32,000 nt of DNA from Candidatus Hermodarchaeota archaeon (GTDB lineage Archaea; Asgardarchaeota; Heimdallarchaeia; Hodarchaeales; Hodarchaeaceae): NCBI GenBank assembly GCA_048886185.1, contig JBHLKY010000003.1, forward strand, positions 150,595 to 182,594. The letters run 5' to 3'. Under the pieces are notes generated by a model. That model worked only from the letters and a program-made list of their open reading frames with translations, did not search any database and was not told where the DNA came from. The position numbers and the translations under genes are program-made. Positions 15,401 to 31,715 of the stretch are shown here, in pieces (positions within the stretch are counted from its first letter, which is position 1; each line of letters starts with the position of its first letter).

Positions 15401-15966
15401 AATGTTATAATACTAGCCTAAAAGTATTCTCAAATGCATCTAGTATCGTAACAGCCTTTTTACCACCTCAAAAATGGAATTATTCAATTTCGATTCAATT
15501 GATAGTGAAATATCATTTTGCGTTTATAATAGGAAGTTCATTCCAGAACTTCTCAATTAGAGACCCATTTCCCCCAACATTAGATTATTCTATCGAACCA
15601 CTGGTTAATCTCATTCGAATACATGCTTTTGTATTTGAGCCTGATAGAGCTTCAGGAATCAAGAATGTCTCTCTATTAATAGGAGAAGAAAATTACTCTT
15701 CTCTTAATTTTTCATCATATCACTTTGAATTTGAAATCCCAACTGTCCTTGCAACTTCCTCATTCATCAAAATAAAGGTTTTCGATAGGGCTGGTAATGA
15801 AAGAACAACTGATTTCATTGATATTAATAATTTTATTTCTAATTCTTCTTCTCTTTTCATGAATTTAGCAACACAATTTCTCTTTTCTACTCTTTTTTCT
15901 GTAGTTATAGTTAGTAGCATTCTCTTTTCTCGAATAATTCGAAGGAGAAGGGCCTCAATTCTTTGA
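12439..15966 (+). CDS. Large cell-surface glycoprotein (N-terminal signal/TM, beta-rich repeats, C-terminal Ig-like domain and TM anchor)
   Basis: Hydrophobic N-terminus; about 45 N-x-S/T sequons by hand count; DPFPP...SGIKNV...DRAGN Ig-like signature; C-terminal TM followed by RRRR. Confidence 0.8.
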   Translation: MSIRNKFQDSVNTIVFLLITFSLVFSSLNTCNILQFSDKSASEINYFPKKEFFTQNVQKNISKFQINSFSSNEEPIPYFLEQSNEFDLELNQMKQILTTSNTNISINSKVKNSSFQILSTGNTSINEWQNGIEPDYGYVNVSTFLSEDETVFQLNYSDNSVTPASGITNTKFLGSFNPNVTSSSTIISFDFRIPYVTPGFLSTLHTLVLDFRFNNGSISFILSDFGGSIGEILEENITRPNGSDTLFILCNDTVPFSWKHISYNITRLVTTYFDLEDYIKFSELTTLFCYLISFSPEFQLCLDLNNIEYFASLPCNPPINYSIGETTVFSENGSLSFESALGNFTFCAYEDSPRNNSQTYLEVNISRIFNLESFCWAENWNKTNVKIKMFLNIPKILEGASSSIIHIFLPSDWNNLNIINHSVNFKFLNKTRMLNEYTLGNYYKLNVSRIEEGILEAWTLNHLSNIITPTDISRNEVIEIRGDLHYPLPGYINLFLQNGSFIYHQTTLPMINSTFIFPKITITDQFPLGIVQLTLNWSYSHGFGIFKKLVYIHEDVNLHSLILFQSPQNIDIHQFEPLLINLSLLKNGNKYSTNSTLVFLFMETEWLLFFQTSNNDYILNVSHIIWNPGDYTLDIIASDGNLFFAKNVVNITVEPASIFWSFENLKTEILKNESINFRVYSYVVPQGSLYFKILSGLIIRIWINDTIVSTYQTNLYGFSDVEFYHGTLIDGDFLQVVLEGRLGGEVVKLQTVLFLISNETVLNSGDRAYIKEITRSVVKANETFYIYYTIEYLSNNSNWFIQIETFSDLILSAFILRDNYVVGAHIEDEKLIWTLKADPSIKDTLVLELPSPTVLVRKESLGKKFRLKILTESKLTINNYTIEINLQFLGFTFSNISLFDSLNRDITNLFPMTIKGTFISFFNLNIIAGLEICYFLEGYLHTLEIVIKKPFLPTYMYNESIIGSWKFSAQINSSYSVIYTILGLGSWECYNTSLKVFSNASSIVTAFLPPQKWNYSISIQLIVKYHFAFIIGSSFQNFSIRDPFPPTLDYSIEPLVNLIRIHAFVFEPDRASGIKNVSLLIGEENYSSLNFSSYHFEFEIPTVLATSSFIKIKVFDRAGNERTTDFIDINNFISNSSSLFMNLATQFLFSTLFSVVIVSSILFSRIIRRRRASIL

Positions 15967-15976
15967 GCTGAAAAAT

Positions 15977-17434
15977 GTGGATCAAATTACATTGAAAGAA
16001 AAAATCAGGATTTTCATCATAACATCTTTTCTATTCATTATTCTAATCTCTGTAGAAGGTTTTATTATATTAGATGATCCTAGCGGAATTTTAAAGGAAT
16101 TTCTAGCATCTCCTATTGAGTTAATAAACTATCTTCCTATCATTATACTGCTGTTTGTATTCGTTAGAGAAATAACTTCATTATTTAACAAGAATGTTCC
16201 AATGTTAGATTTCACGTGGCTAAGAAAAGGTATAATCTTTGTCTCAAATTTCAATATTTACTTGGTGATTTTCGAGACACATTCCCTTGGAAAAATCCAA
16301 ACAAGCGAATTAAGCCAATTAAAGCATTTAGAATTGTTCTCATTAGAATTGGACAAAAAAAATAGATGTGTTAGGGTCATTCTTTATTCAAATTCCTATA
16401 AAGAATTGGATAAATTAATTATAAATTCAAAACCAATTCTAGAGGTTGTTTTACCTGATATTCACTTAATCTCATTCATTCATTATAAGAAGTTGTTCGA
16501 TAAGACTGAAGTAGTCAAATTCAGAAAACAATTCATTTTAAAAGAGAATTCAAAATTTCTTTTCCCTCAATTTATCAGTAATCCTACTGCGAGTATTAGT
16601 TCTTCGTTTTCCAGAATTGTTTTAGCCTTCAACATTCATAAAAGAGGAAATAGCAGTGAAAATGATAATGTAGTTAGATGTGTTCAGTTATATTGTCTTG
16701 AAGATTTTAATCAGAATTCTTTTTTTAGGTGGGCAAATAAGATACTTTCAAGCCCTCATAAGAACTCACCTAAATTCCTTTGGGGCAATCATGAGCTTCA
16801 AAGGATTAGATTGAGATGTCAGATTGAAAAAAGATTCTTATTTTGTTTTCAAGATGGACTCAATTTATTTAATCGTGAGTTAGCTCTTCTCCTGTTAGGA
16901 TTAAAGAAAGTTGGAATTGAAGAAAAGAAAACTGACTATTCTCTTGATACAAAACAATATGAAACAAAACACTCATCCTTATTAAGTACAGAAACTGAAA
17001 TACATACCTCTGGAGCAAATCAAATCTGTTCCGAAATGTGTAATATTCTGAAAGAGAATAAATTATCGAATACAGAAAAAGAAAAGAAATGCGTCAAAAG
17101 AGGAGCTCTTAGCAAGAAATTATTGATAAATGATGATTTTTATTTAATTATTGAAAATATTTTGAAACAAAAAAAAGAAACAGATCAATTTCATCTAATT
17201 TCCGAATTATACAAACAAATCTCACATAAACAATTCTTTTGTGTGCTAGCACATTTGAGTCAGATAAGAAAGCCTGAAATATCTCATCAAAAGATTATCA
17301 AAATTATTATAATTCTATTAAGATTGATTTATCAAGTTCAGGTAACTCCTTCTAGTGATAAAAGATCTCCTTCTGTAGTATTGGCTGATAATGAAGTGAT
17401 TGAAAAGATTTCTCCCTCATTGACTCCAAATTAG
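15977..17434 (+). CDS. Hypothetical protein with two N-terminal TM helices and a cytoplasmic domain
   Basis: 485-aa ORF with GTG start, 10 nt after the glycoprotein stop; no NTPase motif. Confidence 0.7.
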   Translation: MDQITLKEKIRIFIITSFLFIILISVEGFIILDDPSGILKEFLASPIELINYLPIIILLFVFVREITSLFNKNVPMLDFTWLRKGIIFVSNFNIYLVIFETHSLGKIQTSELSQLKHLELFSLELDKKNRCVRVILYSNSYKELDKLIINSKPILEVVLPDIHLISFIHYKKLFDKTEVVKFRKQFILKENSKFLFPQFISNPTASISSSFSRIVLAFNIHKRGNSSENDNVVRCVQLYCLEDFNQNSFFRWANKILSSPHKNSPKFLWGNHELQRIRLRCQIEKRFLFCFQDGLNLFNRELALLLLGLKKVGIEEKKTDYSLDTKQYETKHSSLLSTETEIHTSGANQICSEMCNILKENKLSNTEKEKKCVKRGALSKKLLINDDFYLIIENILKQKKETDQFHLISELYKQISHKQFFCVLAHLSQIRKPEISHQKIIKIIIILLRLIYQVQVTPSSDKRSPSVVLADNEVIEKISPSLTPN

Positions 17435-17442
17435 ATAAGGAA

Positions 17443-17545
17443 TGGGCCCACCCGGATTTGAACCGGGGATCTTTTCCTTAACATTTGGAACAAATGTTAT
17501 CTCGGTTATCAGCCGAGCGCTTTAACCAGGCTAAGCCATGGGCCC
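17443..17545 (-). tRNA. trnI: tRNA-Ile(GAU) with a 28-nt non-canonical intron at 43/44 (17473-17500)
   Basis: GGGCCCA/TGGGCCC acceptor, CTCGG-CTGATAA-CCGAG anticodon arm, CCCGG-TTCAAAT-CCGGG T arm. Removing the 28-nt hairpin insert gives a normal 75-nt tRNA. Confidence 0.93.
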
Positions 17546-17605
17546 TTTTTTGATATGAAAAAAGGTAAGATTTTTCCTGAGTCTTCCTTAAATAAATCTT
17601 GTGGA

Positions 17606-18007
17606 CTATCGATAACTCTTGGTATATTTTGCTCGCGCTCCTGGTCCACCAAAGTGCTTAGGTTCACGACGACGTGGATCTCCTACTATCATATGACGAT
17701 CATATTCAATAAGTTTAACCCGTAATTCTTCAGAATCAGTCCAAGATAAAAGAGCTCGTGCGATAGCAGTTCTAGCAGCGTCAGCTTGACCCATATACCC
17801 TCCACCTTTAACTTTAACCTTAATATCTATTTTATTTTTAGTTTTTTCATCAATAAAATAGAATGGCTCCAATAATTTCAACCTGACAATTTCAGGCTCA
17901 ATGATCTCTATTGGTTTGCCATTAATTAATATTCTACCTTTTCCTTCTTTGATAATGGCACGCGCAATAGCAGTACGTCGCTTTCCACTTCGTAACATAC
18001 TTTTCAT
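17606..18007 (-). CDS. rps9: 30S ribosomal protein uS9
   Basis: SGKRRTAIARA, GGGYMGQADA, EPKHFGGPGARAKYTKSYR. Confidence 0.97.
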   Translation of the reverse strand: MKSMLRSGKRRTAIARAIIKEGKGRILINGKPIEIIEPEIVRLKLLEPFYFIDEKTKNKIDIKVKVKGGGYMGQADAARTAIARALLSWTDSEELRVKLIEYDRHMIVGDPRRREPKHFGGPGARAKYTKSYR

Positions 18008-18017
18008 TTATAAACCT

Positions 18018-18455
18018 TCATATCTTTGATTTCAATTCGCCAAGGGATATGTAAGATGCTTTAGGATTTATTTTCTGAGTTGCTGGGATGATTTCAATTT
18101 CTTTTTCGTGTAATTCTTCAGGAAAGTCCTTGAAAACAACCAAGCGATTATAAGCTTCCTTTCCTTTACTTTTATGATATGGAAGCATACCACGAATCGT
18201 TCTCTTCAGGATCTTGTCGGTTTCACGGGGGTAAAAAGGACCTTTTAATGGATTCGATTTGGTTTTAATTCTCCTTCTTTGCGAATATCTGCTGGCTATT
18301 AGATCTCCTCTTCCAGAAATCAATCCTTTATCTGCATTGACTATTATGATCTTTTCTCCATTCAATAACCTTTTAGCTACAATACTTGCTAATCGACCTA
18401 AAATAGAATTTTCTGCATTTATGATGTTTGATTCATCTAATAAATTATCGAGCAT
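18018..18455 (-). CDS. rpl13: 50S ribosomal protein uL13
   Basis: INAENSILGRLAS, GPFYPR, RTIRGMLPY. Confidence 0.97.
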   Translation of the reverse strand: MLDNLLDESNIINAENSILGRLASIVAKRLLNGEKIIIVNADKGLISGRGDLIASRYSQRRRIKTKSNPLKGPFYPRETDKILKRTIRGMLPYHKSKGKEAYNRLVVFKDFPEELHEKEIEIIPATQKINPKASYISLGELKSKI

Positions 18456-18475
18456 TATTTTTTCCTCTTTTTCCC

Positions 18476-18862
18476 TTATTTAATTATTCTGATTTTAGAT
18501 CCATTAGGATTCTTTTTTACAAGATCTTCGATGGTTAGACAATGTCCACCAACAGAGGTGATTTTCTCTCGAGCTGCTTCTGAAAACGATTCTGCTGCAA
18601 TATCAAGTTGATGATTCAATAATCCTGTACCCAGAACCTTCCCTGGTATCAATAAAACATCACCTGGAGATGATATTCTATTTAGATGGGATAAATTCAC
18701 GGTAACGCGCCTCCTTTTCGCCCTTGATAGTTCAGACGCTAGTAACGACCAGATTTTAGCGTTATTTGCAGCAGCGACTCCTTTCAAAAGCCTAATTAAC
18801 GTGATTTTGTTTGGATCTGATCTTCCCTTAGTTTTCAACTGAATCACACTTTTAAAACTCAT
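18476..18862 (-). CDS. rpl18e: 50S ribosomal protein eL18
   Basis: VNLSHLNR, LLIPGKVLGTG, AAESFSEAAREKI. Confidence 0.96.
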   Translation of the reverse strand: MSFKSVIQLKTKGRSDPNKITLIRLLKGVAAANNAKIWSLLASELSRAKRRRVTVNLSHLNRISSPGDVLLIPGKVLGTGLLNHQLDIAAESFSEAAREKITSVGGHCLTIEDLVKKNPNGSKIRIIK

Positions 18863-19652
18863 TTACAAGAATATTAAATTCTTTTGTTTTTTCTTTCAAT
18901 AGTTTAAGAGCTTCAATCAGAATATTTTTGATCGAAAGTGCTCCAGTACTTTCAATGATAAATACGAAATCTTTCCCAGTTGTTGATACTGTAACAGCAT
19001 CCAATTCACAGATATCAACACATTGGTTGCATAAACTGCAATTTATCACATTTACAGCCAGAATTTCATCGTTTTCAATCTTTATGATATCTCGAGGACA
19101 AACCTCAACACAATCTCCACAAAAAGTACAATTGTTTAGATTAAATTCAACATAAGGATTATATTTGTAAGAAACTGTTGAAATGGGTTGCCACTTTGCA
19201 TGATCTATCCCTCTACCAAGTCGAGCAATAGCTTCGAGAAAAATCTTTTGGTCTCTAGCCATTTTAAGAATTGGAATATTTGGGTGAACAGGAACTATTT
19301 TGGGATCTTGAGATAATAAATGACTGGAAAAAACTATTTCTACATCTTGGTCACCCGATTTTTCTAGAGTTAAAGAAACCTCACAGGAAGTACACCCTTG
19401 TCCCCCACATGAACATAATTCGTGTCTGACATAGTTTTCTAGATCAGTCTTAAGAGGAATTAGTCCTAATCTATGTGCTACGATTTCATCATAAAGAGGT
19501 GTTGTATTCTCTATTACAATTACTTCATCAATTGCCATTGTGGGAACTTCACTCAGGATCATTCTCCGCAAAGTATTTGCGAAGGTTGGGGTTACTTCAG
19601 AGAGAATAAACTTGACGAAATTCGCTCTTTGTTCAATAATCTCTAATTCCAA
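18852..19652 (-). CDS. rpoD: RNA polymerase subunit D (Rpo3) with ferredoxin-like Fe-S domain
   Basis: ANTLRRMILSEVPTMAID, HRLGLIPL, HAKWQP, and CxxCxxCxxxC motifs; TTG start. Confidence 0.97.
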   Translation of the reverse strand: MELEIIEQRANFVKFILSEVTPTFANTLRRMILSEVPTMAIDEVIVIENTTPLYDEIVAHRLGLIPLKTDLENYVRHELCSCGGQGCTSCEVSLTLEKSGDQDVEIVFSSHLLSQDPKIVPVHPNIPILKMARDQKIFLEAIARLGRGIDHAKWQPISTVSYKYNPYVEFNLNNCTFCGDCVEVCPRDIIKIENDEILAVNVINCSLCNQCVDICELDAVTVSTTGKDFVFIIESTGALSIKNILIEALKLLKEKTKEFNILVNEF

Positions 19653-20470
19653 AGATAAAATACCACCTTTATTTGGATCACTTTATTCTAGAACCTAACG
19701 TTAGAATCAAAGAAAAAAACCCATTTTTTCTCTTCTTCTTACTGTTGGTGACTCATAGTGATGTATTTCGTACGATATGGCTGCAATTAAGTTAGCTATA
19801 AATGTTTTTTTCTGAATCTGGTTTCTTTTCTGAAGAAATGCTGAATTAAACCTTTCAAAAGAAATAATCGTTCATTTAATCCTGAATTTCACCCAAGTAT
19901 AGAAAATAATGTTCCCTTATAGAGTTAGCGGGAAAATTAAGGTTTTTTTTATTGAAGCATTTGTAACTAGAATCATTATTGCAGACTCTCTCTGTGGATT
20001 TACTACCTTTCATAAGAAATCACCTGTAAAATAAAAGTAGGAAGGAAAAAAACTCCTCCTATTCTTTTAATTAAGACGGAGGAATCACCTGTGGTGATTG
20101 ATAGATGTTGGAAGTGACAATTAATACAAAATGTTGAACTATTGCATTAACAAGATTCGGTTGGAGTTAACAAGAGGAATTTAAGCCCTCATTGTAGGAA
20201 TACCTTTATATGATTAGATTCTGCGTCAAACCTTGAATTCTCATTCTCAATATTAATTTGAAATCTATTGGGGGAAAACTAGAAAACAAACTACCATTAG
20301 ATGATTTATAAGGCCTCTTCAGAGTTCTCTGAGCTTAATAATACTCTAGTAGCAGAAGAAAGATATGAAATAACCTAAATAAATTGGACTAATGACTGAC
20401 TTACTCAAAATTAGGACTTTAAAAAAGATTAGCTCTTTCATTTAATGAGCACTTGTAAAAGATGGTTTAA

Positions 20471-20749
20471 ATGGTATTGATAATCCTAAGTCAATGGGAT
20501 GAATATATTCGTGGATGGCAACTTCTTATTGAATCTGGAGATCAGATCTTTTGGACAATCCTCATTCTTGTTGCTTGGATAGTTCGAGCAATATCCCTAA
20601 CAATGATTCTTATCCAGCTTGGAGAAAAGTTGATTCGAAATAAGAAAGACTTTGAATTCAATATTTTGATCACTGTAGTAATTTTTATTTTAGTAACAGT
20701 TCCATTTTTTTTGGCTGGACTACCTCTAATTTATCCTATTATACCTTAA
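20471..20749 (+). CDS. Small membrane protein (2-3 TM), unknown function
   Basis: 92-aa hydrophobic ORF with a basic loop (LGEKLIRNKKD), convergent with ksgA. Confidence 0.55.
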   Translation: MVLIILSQWDEYIRGWQLLIESGDQIFWTILILVAWIVRAISLTMILIQLGEKLIRNKKDFEFNILITVVIFILVTVPFFLAGLPLIYPIIP

Positions 20750-20765
20750 TCTCGAAATGATCATT

Positions 20766-21641
20766 TCATTTGGACAAAAAAGTGATTAAAATTTCATTAA
20801 AAACATTAAAAAGGTCAAGTATTTCACTAGGGGAAAGACTGATTGGCTTACGAGAATGATATTCAAGCCTATCTAATTCATTCATGAATAATTTTCGCTG
20901 ATCACGTGAATATTGTTTTGCATATATCTGTAAATTATTTCTTACCTTTTTATGTTTTCGACAAAACAATCGTGTTAAAAATTCGAAGAAATTTTTGTCT
21001 TTTATTATCTCAGGGGATTTCAACTTAGTACCACGTACAAGAGCTGATTGAACCTTGGGCCTAGGGGTAAAGTAGTGAGGGGGGAATGTTTGGATTAGCT
21101 CAAACTTATAAGAATATGAGGAAAAGACTGAAATTCGGCTATAAGAAGAATCTCCTGGTTTTGCACACAGATGGTTAGCAAACTCTCTTTGTAAGGTAAG
21201 TGCCATGATTTCAGGTCGATTTTCAATCGTTGTTATCTTTTTGATAAAGGGGGAGGATATATTGAATGGAAGATTAGAAATCAGTTTCTGATGAGGAGGA
21301 ATTTCAAGGTTAAGAAAATCTCCTGAAATGATTTTTAATTTCTCACCATAATTAATAAATTCTTTTTTTACTATAGAGGAAAGAATTGGATCGATTTCAA
21401 AAGAGAAAACTTTTTGACATTTTTGAAGGAGAAAATAGGTTAGTGTGCCAATTCCAGTTCCAACTTCAACAATAATATCTTCCTGACTGGTATCTACAAC
21501 TGAAAGAAGGGCATCAATCACAGCTTTCTCTATAACAAAATTTTGTCCTGAAGATTTTGATGGAGTAATGGCATATTTTTGAACTATAGTCTTAGTGTAC
21601 TTCTTTAGATTTCCTTTTTCAAGCAGATTGAAGAAGCTCAA
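20766..21641 (-). CDS. rsmA: 16S rRNA dimethyladenosine transferase KsgA/Dim1
   Basis: GQNF, VEVGTGIGTLT, EID, SNLPF, QREFA, PRPKVQS motifs; follows DUF655 as usual. Confidence 0.95.
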   Translation of the reverse strand: MSFFNLLEKGNLKKYTKTIVQKYAITPSKSSGQNFVIEKAVIDALLSVVDTSQEDIIVEVGTGIGTLTYFLLQKCQKVFSFEIDPILSSIVKKEFINYGEKLKIISGDFLNLEIPPHQKLISNLPFNISSPFIKKITTIENRPEIMALTLQREFANHLCAKPGDSSYSRISVFSSYSYKFELIQTFPPHYFTPRPKVQSALVRGTKLKSPEIIKDKNFFEFLTRLFCRKHKKVRNNLQIYAKQYSRDQRKLFMNELDRLEYHSRKPISLSPSEILDLFNVFNEILITFLSK

Positions 21642-21653
21642 TATCGGTCAAGT

Positions 21654-22256
21654 TTATAAGGATTTTTTTGTGAATAAATAATATTTTGGTGAAGTTTCAA
21701 GTTCTAACAGAATACGATTAGTGAATATTGACATGGGATCTGTGATTCCAGTTCTTTTGGTGAAATCACCAAAGGATGAGAATGGACCCTGTTTTCTGGC
21801 TTCTAAAATTGACCATAGTCTCTTTTGTCCAATTCCAGGAAGTAATTCAAGCTGGTGCATTCGTGTTGTGAGTGGGTGTGCCAGATTGATGAAATTTATA
21901 TATTTTGATTCTGATGAATTTACAATATTCTTGATTATAAGAGGGAGGCTTTCCAGAGCCAAACTAGAAAGTTGATCATATCGGAGCTGTTTTACTCGTA
22001 AAATGCGTTTATTTCTTGGTGAAAGTAGTAAAGTATCACCTACTGTGAGTCTTAATCCATTTACCAAAATCACATCAAAAAGTTGGAATCCTTTAACCGT
22101 GATGACAACTGCTAACGGATTATAATCTTCAGAACGTCTGTGACTTAATGATTTTCCTTGAGGATAAAAATCTATTACTACGCTCTCTCCTATGATTTCA
22201 AATCGGTCTTTTAGTTTCCTCTCCTCTCTTTTTCCTCGTTGATCTCTTCTTCTCAT
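21654..22256 (-). CDS. DUF655 / COG1491 predicted RNA-binding protein
   Basis: VIDFYPQG, PLTTRMHQLELLPGIG, PFSSF, KYYLF; canonical neighbour of ksgA. Confidence 0.92.
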   Translation of the reverse strand: MRRRDQRGKREERKLKDRFEIIGESVVIDFYPQGKSLSHRRSEDYNPLAVVITVKGFQLFDVILVNGLRLTVGDTLLLSPRNKRILRVKQLRYDQLSSLALESLPLIIKNIVNSSESKYINFINLAHPLTTRMHQLELLPGIGQKRLWSILEARKQGPFSSFGDFTKRTGITDPMSIFTNRILLELETSPKYYLFTKKSL

Positions 22257-22659
22257 GAATTAAATTCCTCAAAAAAACAAGGTTGGAAATTAGTCTCCTC
22301 TTGGTTTTATACTTTTAAAGAATTTTTATTTAAACATCTAGTCATTTAATCCTTAATAATTTCCTACTTTCTAATGAATAGTGAAATATAGCCTATCCCT
22401 TGCAGCTGAAAGGGATTTAATCGTGGGTAGATGGCAAAAGAGATTTTTAAGGTAAATTTAGATATTTGGAAACCAAATATCCCTATAGAAATTTCTTTTA
22501 AGATGTAAACTTAGTTCTAAACCATTCATGTTTTTCCTCTCCTTGATGGGGGTGATATACTCTACAGAAAATCTCAGAAATCATTCAAGGAGGTTTAGAT
22601 AGCAATGATCTATTACTATATAATAAAAATAGCCATAAGGTACCAATATGCAATAGCTC

Positions 22660-23772
22660 ATGGTTTATTGGTGGGAAAGTCATTTTTATTCAAGTCTCTC
22701 TTTCTGTGATTTGCTTAGATATGAGATTTCCAACTTATTCTTGGTGAATAAATTGAAATACGGCTGTTTAGAATGTGGTGGAAATCTTGTGCAAACTGAA
22801 TCTGATATTGTTTGTATGAATTGTGGTTTGGTAGCAACTAAAATTTTCGAAAAGCCGACGATACAGCTGATAAAAGCAGAGAGAAGTTTTGGAAACCAAT
22901 ATGCATCTATAAGTGAGAGACCTAGTGCCATGAAATCTTTAGGAACATACATAGGTTGTTATCGAAAGAAGTTTTTAGCCGACTCTAAAGGTGTTCAATT
23001 AAAAATTTCTGCTAAACAGCAATTTCGGCGATTAAAATCTCTGAACGACATTTATCTCCACTTTAATGGTCGCCAGCGAGAGTATCGCGCTTATAATTTC
23101 TTAACAACTATTTGTAGTATGCTTCAAATTACTGAGGCAGCAAAAGCTGATGCTTTATTCCTGTATCGAAGTGTAGAACCGCATTTACACGGGGAGCTAA
23201 AACTTTCCAGTTTAATTATGGGCTCTCTTTACTTAGCTATTAGATCCAGGAGAGAAAATATTGAATTAATACGTCTTGTTGGCACCGTTCATAGTCGTGG
23301 TTACACAATTCAGGGTAAAGACATAATAAAGGCTGCTTCATTAATTAGACAACATGCTCAGATTCGAGTAAGTCATGTAAAATCGGAGGAGTATCTGGAT
23401 ACTATTATTAGTCGTCTCCAGAGAGACGCTGCGATATTAAAACAAGTGCAAAAAAAGATAGTTGTCATAAAAAATGAATATTTTCATTATTTAAAGGTTA
23501 CAGCAAAAAAATTACTTATGAATTTCCCACGATCAAATCGAGGTGGACGTAATCCATTTATACTAGCAGCAGCGATAATCGTTGCTTCAGATATTCTGTT
23601 AGCACAGCAAAATTTGTTTTCCCACTGTTATAAACATAAATCTAAACGAGGAATCTTAACACAAAAGCACATTGCAAAAATCTTAAGTATAGCTGAATTC
23701 ACATTACGTGAACACTTTCTCTTGTTAGCAAAACCTTTAATGGAAGATGAAATGAAAAATAATCAAAAATAA
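22660..23772 (+). CDS. Divergent TFB/TFIIB-family protein
   Basis: Zn ribbon CLECGG...VCMNCGLV, two cyclin-like repeats, GRNPFILAAA, and TQKHIA...EFTLR HTH. The start may be the TTG at 22741. Confidence 0.85.
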   Translation: MVYWWESHFYSSLSFCDLLRYEISNLFLVNKLKYGCLECGGNLVQTESDIVCMNCGLVATKIFEKPTIQLIKAERSFGNQYASISERPSAMKSLGTYIGCYRKKFLADSKGVQLKISAKQQFRRLKSLNDIYLHFNGRQREYRAYNFLTTICSMLQITEAAKADALFLYRSVEPHLHGELKLSSLIMGSLYLAIRSRRENIELIRLVGTVHSRGYTIQGKDIIKAASLIRQHAQIRVSHVKSEEYLDTIISRLQRDAAILKQVQKKIVVIKNEYFHYLKVTAKKLLMNFPRSNRGGRNPFILAAAIIVASDILLAQQNLFSHCYKHKSKRGILTQKHIAKILSIAEFTLREHFLLLAKPLMEDEMKNNQK

Positions 23773-24210
23773 TTAATAAAGTAAGATTGCTTTTTTTGAA
23801 GAATTATTATAATAGAATATCTAGCTGAGGAGTTTGGAATATCCAAGATTAAAATTTCTCAAAATCTCTCTCAAAGTGGTAATTCAATAGACAATGAACC
23901 GATTATGAAATTAGATTCCTCATACAGGAAATACATCACTCATAGCTGATTCCAGAGTCATAATGGAAGGCACCTTACTATCGATGCCAATTAGACATAC
24001 AAGATCTTGATAACCGGACTTCTAAAGGCTTCTACAGCCGATAAGGTAACTGATGTCGGATTAAAGCCAGTATAATAGAAACTGGATGTGGTGACGAGTT
24101 ATTTGATACTCTTCTGTGAATAAAATTAAGAAATCTTTTATCAGAATTCATAACCTACCTCGAAAACATGATAAACTGTAGTCCACTTCGCTGACTCTTG
24201 GGATTAAACA

Positions 24211-24274
24211 AAAAAACCAAGTTTATACAGTAATATTTAATCCTATATTAACAAATCGAGTAATTTTCTGGTGA
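24211..24274 (+). promoter_or_regulatory. BRE/TATA promoter and SD of the first EF-1alpha gene
   Basis: A-rich BRE followed by TTTATA (24222-24227); GGTGA at 24270-24274, 6 nt before the ATG. Confidence 0.6.
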
Positions 24275-24280
24275 ATAATA

Positions 24281-25810
24281 ATGGCAGATCTCGAAAGAAT
24301 GAATTTAGTGGTTACAGGTCACGTCGATCATGGGAAGTCGACTGGTTTAGGCCACATGTTATTCCTACTCGGTCAGATTCACGATCCTAAAAAGAAAAGA
24401 CAACCTTGGCGTATAGCTGAGAGATATTTCAAAGATAGTAAAGCGCAAGGTATGGGAAGTTGGTCATATGCTTGGATCCTAGATCCTCTCATAGATGAGA
24501 GAGAACGGGGTTTAACAATCAACGTATCTTTTATGGAATTTAAGACCAAGAATTATATCTTTAACCTTATTGATGCCCCTGGGCACAGTGACTTTATTAA
24601 GAACATGATTACAGGAGCCTCACAAGCAGATGCGGCAATCCTAGTAGTTTCAGCGAGAAAAGGAGAATTTGAGGACGGGACTAAAGTAGCTGGAACGGCC
24701 TCTGGAAAATATGCAAACGTTATTGGAATGACCACAGAACATATGCTTCTTCTTACTTCTCTAGGTGTTACAAACATTGTTGTTGCAATAAATAAAATGG
24801 ATGTTGTAGATTATGATCAGAAGCGGTACGAACAAATCAAAGATGCAATTCACAAGATTTTCACCCAACTTATGACCGCGTTACAGATAGATAACAAAGA
24901 AAAGTACCTAGAAGCTATTAAATATGTCCCTACAAGTGGTTTAGTTGGAGTGAATGTTCTTTCAAAAGATGTAACATTTAAAAATCTTGAAGGACATATT
25001 TCTGCCGCAAAAGCTGGTAGTGGTGACTCTGAATTCATTGAATCATTGGAGAAGGAGAAAGAAGGTATTGAAGCAGGATTTGACGCGTTATCTTGGTATG
25101 ATGGTCCATCCTTAATTGAAGCTCTTGATATACTAGAATCTCCAGCAGTTCGTAAAGAACAATTTGCGAAACAATCAATTCGGATACCAATTCAACAGAC
25201 TCTGAATATAGCTGGCGTTGGTACAGTTCTTACTGGTCGTGTTTCAAGTGGAATTCTTAAACCAAATACTGAAGTTGTCATATCTCCTACAAAACAGAGT
25301 ATTGAACCCCTCCCAATCACAGTAAAGTCAATTGAGGAATTCCATAAGGAAATTCCCCAAGCCCTACCAGGTGATAATGTTGGATTCAACATAAAGACCA
25401 AGAATATTGGCGCAAAAGACATTATCCGAGGAGCAGTAGTCAGTGATCCAAAAGATCCTGCAAAAGCTTTAAGACCAAATATCGACGCATTCTTATCATT
25501 TGTGCTTGTTGTCCGCGGATTAGGTAAAAAATCCAAGAAAAAAGGAGAAGTGTGGGGGATCCATGAAAACTACTCACCTGTTGTTCATTGTGGTACAGCT
25601 CAAGTCGCCTGTCGTGTGACTCAAGTTCAAGAAAAGGATTTACTTGCTCAAGGGGAAAGGGGAATGGTTTGGATGACTCCACTAAATCCCCTCGTTATTG
25701 AACCTTTATCCAAATCCCCTGCACTTGGACGATTTGCATTACGGGATTCTGGTAAAACTGTTGCGGTGGGAGTAGTTCAGAAGATTGAATTGGGCAAATA
25801 TGCTACCTAG
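24281..25810 (+). CDS. tuf: EF-1alpha-family translational GTPase, 509 aa, with multiple insertions
   Basis: GHVDHGKS, ERERGLTI, DAPGH, GASQAD, NKMD, RIPIQ, GVGTV, PGDNVGFN, LGRFALRD. Confidence 0.85.
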   Translation: MADLERMNLVVTGHVDHGKSTGLGHMLFLLGQIHDPKKKRQPWRIAERYFKDSKAQGMGSWSYAWILDPLIDERERGLTINVSFMEFKTKNYIFNLIDAPGHSDFIKNMITGASQADAAILVVSARKGEFEDGTKVAGTASGKYANVIGMTTEHMLLLTSLGVTNIVVAINKMDVVDYDQKRYEQIKDAIHKIFTQLMTALQIDNKEKYLEAIKYVPTSGLVGVNVLSKDVTFKNLEGHISAAKAGSGDSEFIESLEKEKEGIEAGFDALSWYDGPSLIEALDILESPAVRKEQFAKQSIRIPIQQTLNIAGVGTVLTGRVSSGILKPNTEVVISPTKQSIEPLPITVKSIEEFHKEIPQALPGDNVGFNIKTKNIGAKDIIRGAVVSDPKDPAKALRPNIDAFLSFVLVVRGLGKKSKKKGEVWGIHENYSPVVHCGTAQVACRVTQVQEKDLLAQGERGMVWMTPLNPLVIEPLSKSPALGRFALRDSGKTVAVGVVQKIELGKYAT

Positions 25811-25815
25811 CTATC

Positions 25816-25863
25816 CCTTTCTCTTTTCTCTTTTTTTCTTTGAATCTCATTCTTTTTTATAAA
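25816..25863 (+). terminator. Pyrimidine/U-tract terminator overlapping a putative TATA for the second GTPase gene
   Basis: CCCTTTCTCTTTTCTCTTTTTTTCTTT directly after the stop; TTTATAAA at 25856-25863, about 30 nt before ATG 25893. Confidence 0.5.
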
Positions 25864-25892
25864 AATCAGCCTAGGATTGGCGGTTTAACTCT

Positions 25893-27224
25893 ATGGTTGA
25901 TGATAGACCAACTATATCTCTTGTTTGGATCGGACATGTGGATCATGGGAAATCAACAACATTAGGACACTTATTATTTCAAATCGGTGCTGTTGATCCC
26001 CGAATATTAGAAAAGTTAAAGGAGGAAGCTGTACAGCATCAAATGGAATCTTGGCAGTGGGCTTATATTCTTGATTCATTACCAGAGGAAAAACAACGTG
26101 GAATCACTGCAGATATTGCGTTTTATCCATTTGAAACAAAAAAGCGAAATTTCATGCTCATTGATGCCCCTGGACATCGTGATTTTGTGAAAAACATGAT
26201 TCGTGGTGCAGCATTAGCAGATGCATGTGTTTTAGTTGTAAGTGCTGTACCAAATGACCTTAAATCTGGTTTAAAGAGTGGTAGCTACGACAGTCCTGGA
26301 GGTCAAACTAGAGAACACGCAGTTCTGGCATCCGTTTTAGGGATTGAACAGATCGTTGTGGCAATCAACAAAATGGATTCAGTTAATTTTCAAGAAAGTC
26401 AATTTCGGATAGCAACAGATCATATTAAGACGCTATTTCAGGAAATTCAATCACCTTGGACTAAAAAATTGGATAAAATCCCATTTATCCCCATAAGCGG
26501 GTTTTTAGGAGATAATCTAGCTCATCCTTCAACAAATTTCAAATGGTACTCAGGCCCAACCTTAATTGAAGCTTTAGATGCATTAGAGGGTTCCGTGTCT
26601 AATGAAGAATTAACAATGAGATATGTTTCTTATGATTTGGATGAACGTCATGGTTTTGGTACATTGTTATTAGGTAAAGTCTTAGGGGCCCCATTGAAAA
26701 CAGGAGATCTTGTAAGAGCTCTTCCTTTGAATAATGTGTCTGAGGTTAAAGAGATATGGAAACAAGATACTAGAATATCACATATTAGCCCTGGTAATCA
26801 TGGATCAGTACTATTACGAGACTTAGATAAAGATATGTTGGAAGAAGGGATTGTTCTAGCCCCCGAGCAATTAGATTATCGTTTTGCCTCCCTAATTCGT
26901 GCTAGTCTGTTAATACTCGAAGGATCTTTTGTACCTGGTTCTTCTATGATTTTACATTGTGGAACTTCCTATACAACCACACAAATTTCAAATATATCAA
27001 AGATTTTGAGGATGAATCCAAAGTATAAAAAATTACCCCGGAATTTTGAAGGACATATAACTATTGCTTTTAAAGGGGAACTCATTGAAGTAGAATTAGT
27101 TTTAGATTCCCCTCTAGTCGTTGAAAAATTTAGTGACTTTCCGGAGCTAGGTAGAATAATATTACGCCATTCTGGGCAAACCATCGCTGTTGGTAAAATA
27201 AACGATATAGTAAGGGAGAATTAG
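25893..27224 (+). CDS. Second EF-1alpha-family GTPase with divergent domain II (Hbs1/eRF3-like pattern)
   Basis: Intact G-domain (GHVDHGKS, RGIT, DAPGHRDF, GGQTREH, NKMD). Domain II lacks RIPIQDVY, IExHH and GDNVGFN. Confidence 0.85.
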   Translation: MVDDRPTISLVWIGHVDHGKSTTLGHLLFQIGAVDPRILEKLKEEAVQHQMESWQWAYILDSLPEEKQRGITADIAFYPFETKKRNFMLIDAPGHRDFVKNMIRGAALADACVLVVSAVPNDLKSGLKSGSYDSPGGQTREHAVLASVLGIEQIVVAINKMDSVNFQESQFRIATDHIKTLFQEIQSPWTKKLDKIPFIPISGFLGDNLAHPSTNFKWYSGPTLIEALDALEGSVSNEELTMRYVSYDLDERHGFGTLLLGKVLGAPLKTGDLVRALPLNNVSEVKEIWKQDTRISHISPGNHGSVLLRDLDKDMLEEGIVLAPEQLDYRFASLIRASLLILEGSFVPGSSMILHCGTSYTTTQISNISKILRMNPKYKKLPRNFEGHITIAFKGELIEVELVLDSPLVVEKFSDFPELGRIILRHSGQTIAVGKINDIVREN

Positions 27225-27321
27225 AACCTCTACATTAATTATAACTAAGAATTCAATCTAGTTAATACCTGACTTAAATTAGTCATAAATAGATGTAAAT
27301 GTTTCATTACTTTGTAGATCC

Positions 27322-27903
27322 CTAGCGAGCGCTTAAGGCAACACGTTCAATATCCTGCTTTCTTTTTATTGCATTAGAGTTTGGATTATTAGTTGATGCT
27401 AAGATTAATTGTTCTGCAAGAATTTCTTCAAATGCTCTTACGCTATTAAAAGCTGATTTCCTCACTGCTTGAGCCAGTAAGCGTAAGGCAACATCTACCC
27501 GCCGTTGAGGCGCACTATCTACAGCTGTGTGATAAACAATTCCACCATATGAAATTCGGGTAGTCTCTTCCCTCGGAGCACAATTGATGATAGCATCCAC
27601 AAGAACCTGAATAGGATTACTCCCTGTTTTCAGCTCAACTATTTGTAAAGCAGATTTGACAACATTAAGAGCTAAAATTTTCTTTCCAGTGTTTTTCCCA
27701 GGACTCATTAATTTGTTTGCCAGACGTTCAATAATATGAACATAGGATTTATGAAATCGTTTATGTTCATGACGTCCAGCACTATGGGGAACAAGTCTTT
27801 CAGTTAAATTAATGTAACGGACGAGACTAATATCTTTGATTTCGATTTCCTTACAATTCCATAAACCAAATATCTTCATTTCTTCTGGAACAGCCATTTT
27901 CAT
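27322..27903 (-). CDS. rps7: 30S ribosomal protein uS7
   Basis: PHSAGRHEHKRF, APREETTRISYGG, PQRRVD, ERVALSAR. Confidence 0.98.
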   Translation of the reverse strand: MKMAVPEEMKIFGLWNCKEIEIKDISLVRYINLTERLVPHSAGRHEHKRFHKSYVHIIERLANKLMSPGKNTGKKILALNVVKSALQIVELKTGSNPIQVLVDAIINCAPREETTRISYGGIVYHTAVDSAPQRRVDVALRLLAQAVRKSAFNSVRAFEEILAEQLILASTNNPNSNAIKRKQDIERVALSAR

Positions 27904-27916
27904 CTTCCATCTATAC

Positions 27917-28228
27917 TTAAGTCCTTAATTCGATTTCTACGAAAATTGAACGCGAAACATTTAGTCTTATAATCTGTCGCATCGTTCTATCGTCTGCATC
28001 GATGTCTATCAAGCGTTTATGAATTCTTAATTCGTAATCTTCCCAAGTTGCAGTGCCTTGTCCGCTTGGTGACTTCCTTACAGGTAATTTTAACTTTTTT
28101 GTTGGTAAGGGAATAGGACCTCGCATTTTCACCCCAGATTTTTCTGCAATTCTTTTCATTTCATCGCAGATTCCATCTAGCTGTCCAACATCGGTACTCA
28201 TCAACCGAATTCGCGCTACGGACACCAA
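27917..28228 (-). CDS. rps10: 30S ribosomal protein uS10
   Basis: ARIRL, GPIPLPTKKL, RKSPSGQG, WEDYELRIHKRLID. The AGGTGA SD favours a TTG 28228 or GTG 28225 start over 28240. Confidence 0.97.
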   Translation of the reverse strand: MVSVARIRLMSTDVGQLDGICDEMKRIAEKSGVKMRGPIPLPTKKLKLPVRKSPSGQGTATWEDYELRIHKRLIDIDADDRTMRQIIRLNVSRSIFVEIELRT

Positions 28229-28456
28229 GATTAGATTCACCTATTTGCTTATGCAATTCTTTGTGTTAGATTACTCGAGTAGGTAGAATGATTTGGGGTT
28301 ATAAGGATTGTTGGTTTCTATCATACGCCTTCCTTTTTTACATTGAAATTATGCAAAACCTGACTGACATCAATAAGTGATTTAGTAGAAACGTTGTTTT
28401 TTAAGATAAATCAGGATTTAAAGGATAACAGAGATCCCTTGGATGCTGAAAAAGAA

Positions 28457-28647
28457 CGCCAGGGGAGGGATTCGAACCCTCGAGTACAAAAAGTACACTG
28501 GCTTTCTGACACAGGTTATAATTCCTTAATGACTCAAGGCCAGCGCCTTACTACAGGGAAATGGGAGACCATTAACCCATCCACTTGGCTTTCGAATTGT
28601 AATACTCCATGGAGATTTAAAAGTGAAAGTATCTACAAAACCCCGGC
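28457..28647 (-). tRNA. trnS: tRNA-Ser(UGA) with three introns: 8/9 (28591-28639, 49 nt), 18/19 (about 28551-28581, 30 nt), 37/38 (28504-28532, 29 nt)
   Basis: GCCGGGG/CCCTGGC acceptor with G73, GCC/GGC D stem, CTGGC-CT-TGA-G^A-GCCAG, long variable arm GTAC/GTAC, GAGGG-TTCGAAT-CCCTC. The spliced product is an 83-nt class II tRNA. Confidence 0.9.
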
Positions 28648-28672
28648 AAAACGGATAGTTAATGATTTATTA

Positions 28673-29122
28673 TCATGTTTTATAGTCGTACATCACAATT
28701 GTTCCACCAATAGCTACAATAGTCAGGATGATTCCCATGATTAATAATGTGATGGATGTCCTTGCATCATAAGCGAATCGTGTAGAATAACGGATTAAGT
28801 AAAGGCCTCCTGAACCTATACTGAAAAATAGGCCTGCTATTAAAGATTCTACTAAGAATTGTTCACTTGAAGATTGAAAAATTGGTACAAGTTGAGTGGC
28901 CGTCTGTCCCATCGGTAGTGGTTGTTCTGTAACATCGTAAAGTCCACCAGCTAGAATGAATACAGTTGCAACGAGTATGAGGGCCAAAATATATTTATGG
29001 GGTGCTTCATAGGGGAGTTCGATATCTGGAATCCTAAAATCGATTGTGGGCTTTTTAAGGCCTGGGATCCATGGAAGTCGTTGTGGATTTTCCTTAATTC
29101 TTTCAGGTTGCTTTTTTGACAT
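28673..29122 (-). CDS. OSTC/DC2-like (OST3/OST6 family) oligosaccharyltransferase subunit
   Basis: Three TM segments. ILAGGLYDVTEQP and SEQFLVESLIAGLFFSIGSGGL match the eukaryotic OSTC pattern GGxxYDxxxxP...QYxxExxxxxxxFxxGxxG as I recall it. Confidence 0.8.
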   Translation of the reverse strand: MSKKQPERIKENPQRLPWIPGLKKPTIDFRIPDIELPYEAPHKYILALILVATVFILAGGLYDVTEQPLPMGQTATQLVPIFQSSSEQFLVESLIAGLFFSIGSGGLYLIRYSTRFAYDARTSITLLIMGIILTIVAIGGTIVMYDYKT

Positions 29123-29233
29123 AAGAATAACCTTTGAAATCCGTTCGCTATAAGATTCTCTTTTTTTTGGTTGGTTTTGTTGATCTAGGTGTCCTGATGT
29201 TTAGTTTAAACCCCTTTTTGGCGCATATTACTT

Positions 29234-29296
29234 AGGATGAAGCTTTAGGGGGCGATACTGTTAATAGATGTACGGGATGAGGCGACATGAATCTGA
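29234..29296 (+). ncRNA. Candidate box C/D guide sRNA
   Basis: AGGATGA (C) - 11-12 nt - GCGA (D'?) - spacer - GGGATGA (C') - 12 nt - CTGA (D). TTTAAA at 29205-29210 lies about 25 nt upstream. This is a GC-richer patch in an AT-rich spacer. Confidence 0.5.
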
Positions 29297-29333
29297 CTTA
29301 ATTTATTTTCGAAATTAAATAATAACAAAATAA

Positions 29334-30434
29334 TTAGTTGGTTTTCTGAGATTTTGAGATTTTTGGATGTTTATTCTTATTTATAATCTTCTCAAAGTCA
29401 ATAAACCCCATTCCTTCTAGATCTGAAATCTTAATTATCGTCAGATGGGAATTTTCTATTGATGAATCAATGGAATCGACATTATCATCATCTAAGAACC
29501 ATACCGCTTTCTTTTGGAGGAATTTTGAAAGGCTTTCAATCAATAGCAATCTATCAGTATCCTCTTTTTCATTCGAGGATGTTACACCAGTAATCATCGG
29601 ATAAGTGGAATCTTTTCGACCTTTAAGAACGATTTTATCTTTATTCGGTTCAGAGAGACCATCAAAAGGCTCTGATCTAAACCAAAGAACATTAAATCCT
29701 TTATCTGTTAAATAATTCGTAATTTCTTTTTGTAATTGGGATCGTGGTTGCTCATAACCTTTTAATATGTTTTGGCCGATGTTTTTGAATTGATTCTCTA
29801 GAATATCTAAAGGAACATCAAGATTTTCCCCTAAAATGGTACTAAGAATTTTAAAGTACTGCATTTTTGGAAAACTTTCACCTTTTTCATATTTATAAAG
29901 TGATTGTCGTGAAATTCCAACTTTATTTGCTAGAATTGCCATGTCTAGTTGTAATTGGTCTCTTCGCGCTTTGAATTTCTCCTTAGAAAGATTAACATAA
30001 ACTCCTCCTCTATCTGCAAACTTTGAGATTTTAGCTTGATTTAATCCCTTTTCATATTGAAGAAACATTTGTAAAGTCTTTAATGAAATTGCAGAAACAT
30101 TATGTCTCCGATACAATGTTGCTTGCTTGATCGATTTTCCTGCAGCTGAATGAGCAATAAGTAAGGGAAATCCTGAGATTAATTTTGAGATCAGTTGTAA
30201 ATCGATGGATGTATGCTTCTTAAAAAAATCTAGGTCAATTAAAACTTTGGTAACGATTTTTTGTGGATTAGATTGTAAACCCATTAAATCATTCTTTTTA
30301 GCAATGAAATCAAAAGCATTTGATTTTACGTTTTCGTTCCAAAGAGAATATCCAGCTTTTTGAAATTCAGTCTTTGTTTCATCAACTAATTTTTCTTTTG
30401 AAACGATCTTTTGAATTGACATTAGCGATTCCAA
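29334..30434 (-). CDS. COG1395-type HTH (XRE) transcriptional regulator
   Basis: AFDFIAKK N-terminal domain, RGGVYVNL, HTH LANKVGISRQSLYKYEKG; TTG start. Confidence 0.85.
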   Translation of the reverse strand: MESLMSIQKIVSKEKLVDETKTEFQKAGYSLWNENVKSNAFDFIAKKNDLMGLQSNPQKIVTKVLIDLDFFKKHTSIDLQLISKLISGFPLLIAHSAAGKSIKQATLYRRHNVSAISLKTLQMFLQYEKGLNQAKISKFADRGGVYVNLSKEKFKARRDQLQLDMAILANKVGISRQSLYKYEKGESFPKMQYFKILSTILGENLDVPLDILENQFKNIGQNILKGYEQPRSQLQKEITNYLTDKGFNVLWFRSEPFDGLSEPNKDKIVLKGRKDSTYPMITGVTSSNEKEDTDRLLLIESLSKFLQKKAVWFLDDDNVDSIDSSIENSHLTIIKISDLEGMGFIDFEKIINKNKHPKISKSQKTN

Positions 30435-30465
30435 GAGGGAACTTAACGTGATTCAGCTATAAAAG

Positions 30466-30573
30466 TGGTGGACCAGCCGAGATTCGAACTCGGGGGTTGT
30501 GGATATCCAGGGGTGAATCCCATGGAAACTCCGCCTTGCGAAGACGGCGTGATACCAGCTTCACCACTGGCCC
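30466..30573 (-). tRNA. trnA: tRNA-Ala(CGC), CCA encoded, with a 32-nt variable-loop intron (best fit 45/46, 30497-30528)
   Basis: GGGCCAG/CTGGTCC acceptor with the G3:U70 Ala identity pair, CCGTC-TTCGCAA-GGCGG, CCGAG-TTCGAAT-CTCGG. It is 76 nt after removing the insert. Confidence 0.93.
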
Positions 30574-30840
30574 AAATTTTATAAATGTTAAAAAAATCTT
30601 TTTGGAGAAGTTGGTATATGAGTTTCCTTAACATCTTTTTTTTACTACATAGTCTTTTTATCTTTTCTAAAAAATCTCCTGCTTGGTATCTTTATTCATA
30701 AAAGACTCATTTCACAACCTAAAAACAAATGGCCTTAATTTGTCTTAGAAAAAGATTGTAGAATTGAAAACTTTTGTTTCAGTTAACCCTTGTATCTTCT
30801 TATATGGAAAAGGGTAAATGGTGGAAAAAAGAGAGGTTCA

Positions 30841-31155
30841 CTAGCCAAATAAGGAGGATAAACCAAGATCATCCCCCTCTTCTTCCTCTTCTTCTTCTGC
30901 TTCTTTAGCTTTTTTTCCCTCTTTTCCCTCTTTTGAGGGTTCGGATGTACCTGAGACTCCTGGAACTGCAGCTGTCATCAGTGAAGCCCCTTTGATAGCT
31001 TCTTCAATGTTTATTGATGACAGTGTTGCTACAAGGGCCTTGATTTTTGATTCATCTGGTTTTCCACCGGCAGCCTTAATTATTGCTTCTATTCCTTTTT
31101 CAGTTACATCTTTACCTGTTGAGTGTAGAACCAGAGCAGCATGTAGATATTGCAA
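30841..31155 (-). CDS. rpl12: Ribosomal stalk protein aP1 (L12p)
   Basis: YLHAALVLHSTGK, AAGG, acidic hinge and GLSSLFG C-terminus; TTG start with GGAAGTGA SD. Confidence 0.96.
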   Translation of the reverse strand: MQYLHAALVLHSTGKDVTEKGIEAIIKAAGGKPDESKIKALVATLSSINIEEAIKGASLMTAAVPGVSGTSEPSKEGKEGKKAKEAEEEEEEEGDDLGLSSLFG

Positions 31156-31516
31156 TTATTGTCACTTCCTTATCATAATAGATCATTATTCTCTTTCGAG
31201 AATTACTAGTAAATTCTAACCATATTGTTAGCGTTTTTGCTTTATTCACACAACACATTATTAGTTAGAATTATCTTACTTCCATTTCTAGCATTTTTCA
31301 CAGTAAGTTTATCTGTGTAATGGAATAGATTCTAGCTATCTTGCAGAAAAAACTAGCCCACCTCCTACAAAAAAGCAATAGGGGTTCGTTAATAGCTATG
31401 AGAATTAATCAATAAATATATTTTAACTAGTCCCATGAAGAATACAATTTTATTTAACTTACCAATAAAAAAAATTAAAGGTTTCTTATTACCCTCCTTT
31501 TATTATAAGAGGAATT

Positions 31517-31715
31517 TGGGGACGGCCGGATTTGAACCGGCGATTTTCGGACATCCTGCGATTAGCAGAGATGACACCGAGTTTCCTCATTTTTCCAGAA
31601 CTTCATCATGAGTTTCAGTTAACCCAGTGGAGTTCACAGGGGGTTCTGGAGCCCGGCGCGATACTTACCCGGTCTTATTAGAAGCTAACAAGACCACTAG
31701 CTTCGCTACGTCCCC
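31517..31715 (-). tRNA. trnW: tRNA-Trp(CCA) with three introns: 18/19 (31665-31696, 32 nt), 37/38 (31583-31645, 63 nt), 45/46 (31545-31574, 30 nt)
   Basis: GGGGACG/CGTCCCC acceptor, GCGA/TCGC D stem, CCGGG-CT-CCA-G^A-CTCGG, GCCGG-TTCAAAT-CCGGC. The spliced product is 74 nt. Confidence 0.92.
31583..31645 (-). ncRNA. Intron-encoded box C/D guide RNA in pre-tRNA-Trp
   Basis: CTGA at 31618-31615, ATGATGA at 31609-31603, ATGA at 31590-31587. The antisense elements pair with tRNA positions 33-37 plus the junction and with 38-45. Confidence 0.8.

Follow-up and report, generated by a model that had tools for sequence, protein, structure and literature searches.

Every tRNA gene found in a 32,000-nucleotide stretch of the Candidatus Hermodarchaeota archaeon assembly GCA_048886185.1 (contig JBHLKY010000003.1, positions 150,595 to 182,594; hereafter the window) is interrupted. 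By our reading of the sequence, the genes for tRNA-Ile(GAU), tRNA-Ser(UGA), tRNA-Ala(CGC) and tRNA-Trp(CCA) carry one, three, one and three inserts, respectively, and these eight inserts are very probably archaeal bulge-helix-bulge (BHB) tRNA introns spliced by protein enzymes, for which we infer cleavage, ligation and the order of splicing. The window is a well-supported further example of a pattern already known from Asgard archaea, not a discovery.

All four genes lie on the minus strand. The tRNA-Ile(GAU) gene occupies window positions 17443-17545 (103 nt; Rfam RF00005, 61.8 bits), tRNA-Ser(UGA) 28457-28647 (191 nt; a partial Rfam match to the 3′ part only, 22.6 bits), tRNA-Ala(CGC) 30469-30573 (105 nt; Rfam 49.8 bits, in the E-value run only) and tRNA-Trp(CCA) 31517-31715 (199 nt, with no Rfam match). 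With the inserts removed, ARAGORN reads the mature forms as Ile(gat), Ser(tga), Ala(cgc) and Trp(cca) of 75, 85, 73 and 74 nt, respectively, all of them regular cloverleaves with the expected anticodons, and G3:U70 is retained in tRNA-Ala(CGC). Excision and ARAGORN thus agree with the count first made in a sequence-only reading of the window, namely eight introns in four genes, two at the canonical position 37/38 and six elsewhere. No further tRNA gene was found in the window by Rfam or by a genome-wide scan for an intact T-arm plus acceptor stem. Additionally, the tRNA-Ala(CGC) gene is followed by a genomically encoded CCA at 30466-30468 (minus strand; ...GGTCCA-CCA-C), and the Ile, Ser and Trp genes of the window have none.

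The junctions of the inserts were assessed under a fixed geometry, in which exon nucleotides p-5 to p-2 pair with intron nucleotides n-5 to n-2 to form the central helix, and each 3-nt bulge is cut between its second and third nucleotides. Of the 32 central-helix pairs possible over the eight junctions, 26 are formed; when the introns were shuffled 5000 times, the count averaged 13.4 ± 2.6 and never came to 26. Strict motifs are present at three junctions (Ser 8/9, Ser 20a/20b and Trp 45/46), compared with 0.14 expected, and AA is the 3′-terminal dinucleotide in seven of the eight introns. Specifically, the 49-nt Ser intron at 8/9 (28591-28639, minus) forms a strict hBHBh′ motif with a complete central helix (CGGG/UUCG, 4/4), a 6-bp h′ helix, a 2-bp h helix and the bulges GU-U and AA-A, split at the predicted cut. 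The 30-nt Trp intron in the variable loop at 45/46 (31545-31574, minus) likewise has a complete central helix (UCGG/CCGA, 4/4), a 5-bp h′ helix and the bulges UG-U and AA-A. At the 29-nt canonical Ser intron at 37/38 (28504-28532, minus), three of four central pairs form, h′ has 3 bp, and the anticodon stem serves as the h helix. Three of four central pairs also form at the 32-nt Ala intron at 45/46 (30497-30528), the 32-nt Trp D-loop intron at 18/19 (31665-31696) and the 63-nt canonical Trp intron at 37/38 (31583-31645), all on the minus strand. An unconstrained strict-BHB scan of each gene was dropped because of its many chance matches, and the junction-specific tests were used instead.

Of the intron positions proposed in the sequence-only reading, seven stand, and one is revised: the Ser D-loop intron had been placed at 18/19, where no central helix forms. 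This 28-nt intron (28551-28578, minus) is probably best placed at Sprinzl 20a/20b (20/21 in linear numbering), where the central helix is complete (4/4), h′ has 2 bp and excision leaves an 11-nt D-loop. No other register forms all four central pairs in every one of the five Ser orthologs, among which the paired bases themselves vary (GUGG/CUGU, GCGG/CUGC and GCGG/UCGU). The consistency of the central helix among orthologs was used to set the boundary because ARAGORN did not discriminate, accepting 174 of the 210 enumerated excisions.

The 28-nt Ile intron at 43/44 (17473-17500, minus) has the layout of 1 nt, a 9-bp hairpin, AGGA and AA, and its hairpin lies in exact register with the junction. 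It is classed as a relaxed BHB because only two of four central pairs form here, and three of four in the orthologs of two congeners, G006 and G011. Registers from 43/44 to 48/49 were tried by hand and none is strict; an 18-nt internal alternative was rejected, as it would leave a variable region of 15 nt.

The genome encodes candidates for the enzymes that splicing of such introns would call upon. Two PF01974 genes are present, at C8:47026 (93.8 bits) and C8:79836 (58.9 bits). The α paralogue of the splicing endonuclease EndA (206 aa, at C8:47026) matches the catalytic α subunit of Aeropyrum pernix (3P1Z_B, 3e-41) with the Tyr/His/Lys triad aligned, and its aligned catalytic His is the residue that is replaced by Ala in the 3AJV sequence. 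Its loop, GYFGKPVGIRKPKSPRFDRPL, aligns without gaps to that of A. pernix and places a Lys on K44, which is the conserved lysine of the Crenarchaea-specific loop (CSL) of A. pernix (PMC5829648). The second, β paralogue (212 aa, at C8:79836) has ARMAN-2 4FZ2 as its best PDB sequence match, also matches the M. kandleri β unit, and shows a 9-residue gap exactly at the loop. A gene for RtcB is found at C9:134509 (533.6 bits). A broad-specificity EndA had been predicted from the introns alone, and the α/β pair, with the L1 loop and the K44-aligned Lys in α, agrees with that prediction. In the process we propose, each gene would be transcribed into a long precursor, in which each junction would fold into a 4-bp central helix of exon with intron and two flanking 3-nt bulges, the intron usually forming its own hairpin. 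An (αβ)2 endonuclease would then cut every bulge between its second and third nucleotides, and RtcB would join the exons; an L1 loop of the Crenarchaea type, such as the α paralogue has, is known to permit relaxed motifs at non-canonical sites.

Several points weigh against reading the inserts as BHB introns. Five of the eight junctions are relaxed motifs only, and relaxed motifs are easily reached by chance (10.64898/2026.10.13.758758). The weakest junction, Ile 43/44, has just two central pairs, both G:C. The BHB statistic is itself partly circular, because the motif helped to choose among near-equivalent registers (Ile 43 versus 44, and the Ser D-loop). On the side of the enzymes, the (αβ)2 architecture with a Crenarchaea-specific (L1) loop is a prediction in which the heterotetramer comes from alignment only, and the putative β subunit appears, by alignment and inspection, to have no His at the catalytic position. 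Finally, a search of sequencing runs found no RNA run containing the window sequence. The strict motifs and the comparative data carry most of the weight.

The comparative data come from a genus of 22 species representatives (labelled by G-numbers, with G000 for this genome), and orthologs of all four genes were recovered from the 21 congeners. The exons of the Ile-GAU gene are identical in 19 species, and its introns occur in four site combinations: in the D-loop (2 species), at 30/31 (8 species), at 30/31 together with an anticodon-loop site (6 species) and at 43/44 (only this genome, G006 and G011). The Ile 43/44 insert is missing from orthologs that read ...CCGAG-AGATC... across the site, and its hairpin carries compensatory changes in G006 and G011. 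In the Ala gene, the 45/46 intron is 21 nt long in five species and 31-32 nt in eight, and its central helix is complete (4/4) in 10 of 13 orthologs, with a compensatory change running from G42:C through G:U to A42:U. The Ser 8/9 intron is missing from the G011 ortholog (GGGGT-AGCC), and at the Ser 37/38 site the orthologs have introns of 26-30 nt with divergent sequences. The three-intron layout of the Trp gene is common to all 15 orthologs; mean column identity across these 15 species is 0.97 for the exons, 0.78 for the 18/19 intron and 0.82 for the 45/46 intron. In the h′ hairpin of the Trp 18/19 intron, 93% of cells are paired and six of nine pairs have changed on both sides, and in the central helix of the Trp 45/46 intron, 92% of cells are paired and two of four pairs are compensatory, tracking the anticodon stem. 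A search across the class for the Trp gene outside the genus returned only T-arm matches. Within the genus, G001 has a second, partial Trp copy (G001:C16:10631-10757, locus L113), which starts inside the 37/38 intron, covers query positions 72-199 at 83% identity and is 22 kb away from the complete gene.

Near-invariant exons, varying inserts and covariation together argue against pseudogenes, retained expansions and assembly artefacts, and the BHB motifs, the presence and absence of inserts among orthologs and the compensatory changes bear out the first interpretation of the inserts as BHB-type introns. The idea that the four loci are decaying pseudogenes, with functional compact copies elsewhere, perhaps in the unassembled 4%, is extremely unlikely. 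It draws some room from the state of the assembly, a metagenome-assembled genome (MAG) in 75 contigs that is 96% complete and from which only about 35 tRNA genes were recovered, so that some genes were certainly missed. However, a blastn-short search of this assembly for intron-free copies of the four tRNAs found none, and synteny and conservation of the interrupted loci extend over 15-19 species, single-contig genomes included. Near-invariant exons combined with compensatory helix changes indicate purifying selection on the spliced product; moreover, tRNA-Trp(CCA) is the sole tRNA able to read UGG.

A second alternative, that some inserts are retained in the mature tRNA as enlarged variable loops or D-loops, would best fit Ile 43/44 and the variable-loop inserts of Ala and Trp. 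We consider it very unlikely, if a little less so than pseudogenes. The Ile insert does form a stable hairpin of 9 bp in the variable region, with two of four central pairs at its junction, and the authors of a recent census concede that some intervening sequences may not be introns (10.64898/2026.10.13.758758). On the other hand, a plain variable loop of 5 nt (AGAUC) is seen in 16 of the 19 Ile orthologs, whose exons are otherwise identical, and the Ala ortholog of G011 is a compact, intron-less gene of 73 nt. Such compact Ile and Ala orthologs mean that the insert cannot belong to the conserved mature structure. The Ile junction, furthermore, has exactly the same BHB register in each of the three carriers (1 nt, hairpin, 4 nt, 2 nt), and we know of no class I tRNA whose variable region spans 33-37 nt.

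That the inserts are artefacts of assembly or binning is a possibility of negligible weight. The genome is a MAG with an estimated contamination of 5%, which would allow for it; yet up to 19 other species, assembled independently, show the same layouts. In addition, contigs from four DNA runs of one study contain 97-100% of the sampled words of the stretch, although three of these four runs may be the source of the assembly and hence not independent. Taken together, the comparative evidence favors protein-spliced BHB introns over all three alternatives.

The Trp 37/38 intron stands apart from its neighbors in the same gene, since 96% column identity is kept across 15 species, the level also seen in the exons. 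It contains the succession GUGAACU, 12 nt, CUGA, AACUC, AUGAUGA, 12 nt and AUGA, with the boxes at intron positions 9-15, 28-31, 37-43 and 56-59 and both guides of 12 nt. The guide duplexes have 9 and 8 bp, one pair of which shows a compensatory change. Applied to these duplexes, the N+5 rule gives C39 and C34 of this same tRNA as the predicted targets. This intron therefore reads as a box C/D guide as well, predicted to direct 2′-O-methylation of C34 and C39. Its terminal C and D boxes are degenerate (GUGAACU and AUGA), and no Rfam C/D family matches the intron. Box C/D guides nested in this way have been described in the tRNA-Trp introns of Haloferax volcanii and other Euryarchaeota (Clouet d'Orval 2001; Singh 2004; reviewed in PMC4090602). 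The candidate resembles the Haloferax volcanii tRNA-Trp intron in its C, D′, C′ and D boxes, its two 12-nt guides and its predicted targets at positions 34 and 39; it differs in that position 39 is C here rather than U, in its degenerate terminal boxes and in a host gene with two further introns. Elsewhere in this genome, the tRNA-Tyr(GUA) gene (C29:31130-31264, minus) has a 60-nt intron at 37/38 containing GAUGAUUCGAUGA, and a tRNA-Leu gene (C11:94667-94801, minus) has a 50-nt D-arm intron containing UGAUGA; either may host a guide RNA.

The history of the Ile 43/44 intron may depart from that of the genome carrying it. In the rpoA′ gene tree, this genome is nested in a clade of eight species (SH-aLRT, a branch-support test, 99), and the upstream flank of the Ile gene follows the same tree. 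All six other clade members with a recovered Ile gene have an intron at 30/31, which this genome does not, and the 43/44 intron occurs otherwise only in the two distant congeners G006 and G011. On the evidence of a single-gene tree and three intron sequences, the 43/44 intron may reflect a loss plus a regain at the same site, or an exchange of the intron-bearing gene through its invariant exons; we present this as a lead, not a result. The broader proposal, that intron positions turn over at the species level and that intron "alleles" may move between species by recombination through invariant exons, is tentative, and we regard it as rather unlikely. If true, it would offer a concrete, testable route of tRNA-intron arrival, a question left open by the 2026 census. 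The sequence-only reading had also expected this lineage to have undergone its own tRNA intron proliferation, and lineage-specific gain and turnover are indeed seen within the genus.

Genome-wide, scanning and hand parsing gave 35 tRNA genes with an intact T-arm, of which 10 are compact (about 29%) and 25 interrupted by about 34 introns, or about 1.0 intron per gene. About half of these introns lie at or near 37/38. The window, with 2.0 introns per gene, is a local high relative to this average. Rfam places about 23 tRNA genes above threshold in the whole genome, and the remaining isoacceptors must be hidden (in genes with T-arm introns, or in split or permuted genes) or unassembled. As for the origin of the eight introns of the window, they show no sign of intron transposition: a search for copies in the genome gave only chance BLAST matches, of 12-16 nt at 100% identity or at most 21 nt at 90-94%. 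In Thermoproteales, by contrast, the introns reportedly form sequence families suggesting transposition, as Fujishima et al. are said to have described in 2010.

Finding such genes with general tools is difficult, as had been anticipated, in that standard finders were expected to miss or mis-call them. With default settings ARAGORN reports no tRNA in the 32-kb window (0 of 4), and with the -i option it misplaces the Ile and Ala introns and calls the Trp gene as Pyl. Rfam at the gathering threshold finds one of the four, the Ile gene (17545..17443), with a 28-nt variable-loop insertion; a relaxed threshold adds Ala-CGC (30573..30469) and a fragment of a third gene. These counts apply to the tools used here. 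In the published Asgard census, 30% of inserts, mostly those of the D-arm, escape tRNAscan-SE (10.64898/2026.10.13.758758).

The assignment of the DNA to an Asgard lineage, made at first from sequence alone, holds, with "Promethearchaeota archaeon DZ3S.51" as the nearest named record. A genome of the same GTDB order, G020, proved identical to WAPZ01 S146_22, a MAG that bears the label Hodarchaeales in one preprint, and the Hodarchaeales placement in this analysis follows that single chain of evidence. The sequence-only reading had known of no description of the intron pattern in Asgard archaea, and had allowed that literature showing the same pattern in this clade would remove the novelty. Such literature has existed since 2024, preceded in 2018 by a report on the enzyme, and the novelty claim therefore fails. 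Kaneta et al. (2018) reported an (αβ)2 EndA with the L1 loop in Asgard archaea (PMC5829648). Valentin-Alvarado et al. (2024, Nat Commun) found 92-95% of the tRNA genes of Atabeyarchaeia and Freyarchaeia to be interrupted, often at non-canonical positions, over half of them with multiple introns (PMC11291895). Goswami et al., in a preprint of October 2026, surveyed 90 Asgard genomes and counted 2.2 introns per gene in their focal families and 0.91 elsewhere, with repeated gains, often on terminal branches, an enrichment of BHB at the boundaries and two widespread EndA paralogues (10.64898/2026.10.13.758758). In this literature, too, splicing is inferred for most such introns.

The genes of the window share with the published Asgard cases the phylum, multi-intron genes, sites in the D-arm and variable region, BHB and relaxed BHB motifs and two EndA paralogues; introns likewise differ between close relatives, as expected of recent gains, and the genes are missed by standard finders. 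Unlike those cases, this genome belongs to the order shared with S146_22, not to one of the two intron-rich classes, and its load of about 1.0 intron per gene is near the 0.91 of the other Asgard families and falls far short of the 2.2 found in the focal ones. Multi-intron tRNA genes are also known from Thermoproteales (Sugahara et al. 2008; Fujishima et al. 2010; cited in PMC11291895 and PMC5829648), which are similar in having up to three introns per gene, non-canonical positions, relaxed HBh′ motifs and an (αβ)2 EndA with the CSL lysine. Unlike Thermoproteales, the organism belongs to a different phylum, and none of its eight introns here has a second genomic copy. A further parallel is the ε2 EndA of ARMAN-2 and other DPANN (Fujishima et al. 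2011, PMC3239211), which cleaves relaxed BHBs with broad specificity, as the enzyme of this genome is predicted to do. The difference is that two separate polypeptides of about 210 aa are found here instead of a three-unit fusion, and that in alignment the α-subunit loop corresponds to the CSL (L1) of Crenarchaea rather than to the loop type of ARMAN.

Apart from the tRNA genes, the window contains two adjacent GTPase genes of the EF-Tu/EF-1α family on the plus strand, at 24281-25810 (509 aa) and 25893-27224 (443 aa). The 443-aa product has the size of aEF1A, and the 509-aa product may be an Hbs1/aRF3-like or SelB-like paralogue. Three consecutive large open reading frames, also on the plus strand (10820-12331, 12439-15966 and 15977-17434; 503, 1175 and 485 aa), have no Pfam match at E <= 0.001.

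The value of the window is that of material rather than discovery: it provides a comparatively validated multi-intron tRNA set in an Asgard genus with 22 sequenced species. With exons that hardly differ and intron positions particular to each species, the genus lends itself well, as a natural experiment, to dating when introns were gained and lost; Ile-GAU alone offers four configurations. To our knowledge, the specificity of an Asgard EndA has so far not been measured biochemically, and the junctions described here, with Ser 8/9 at the strict end and Ile 43/44 at the very relaxed end, are ready substrates for such a measurement. Because default tRNA finders detect at most one of the four genes of the window, inferences on codon usage or tRNA complement drawn for such MAGs would be wrong without an intron-aware census.

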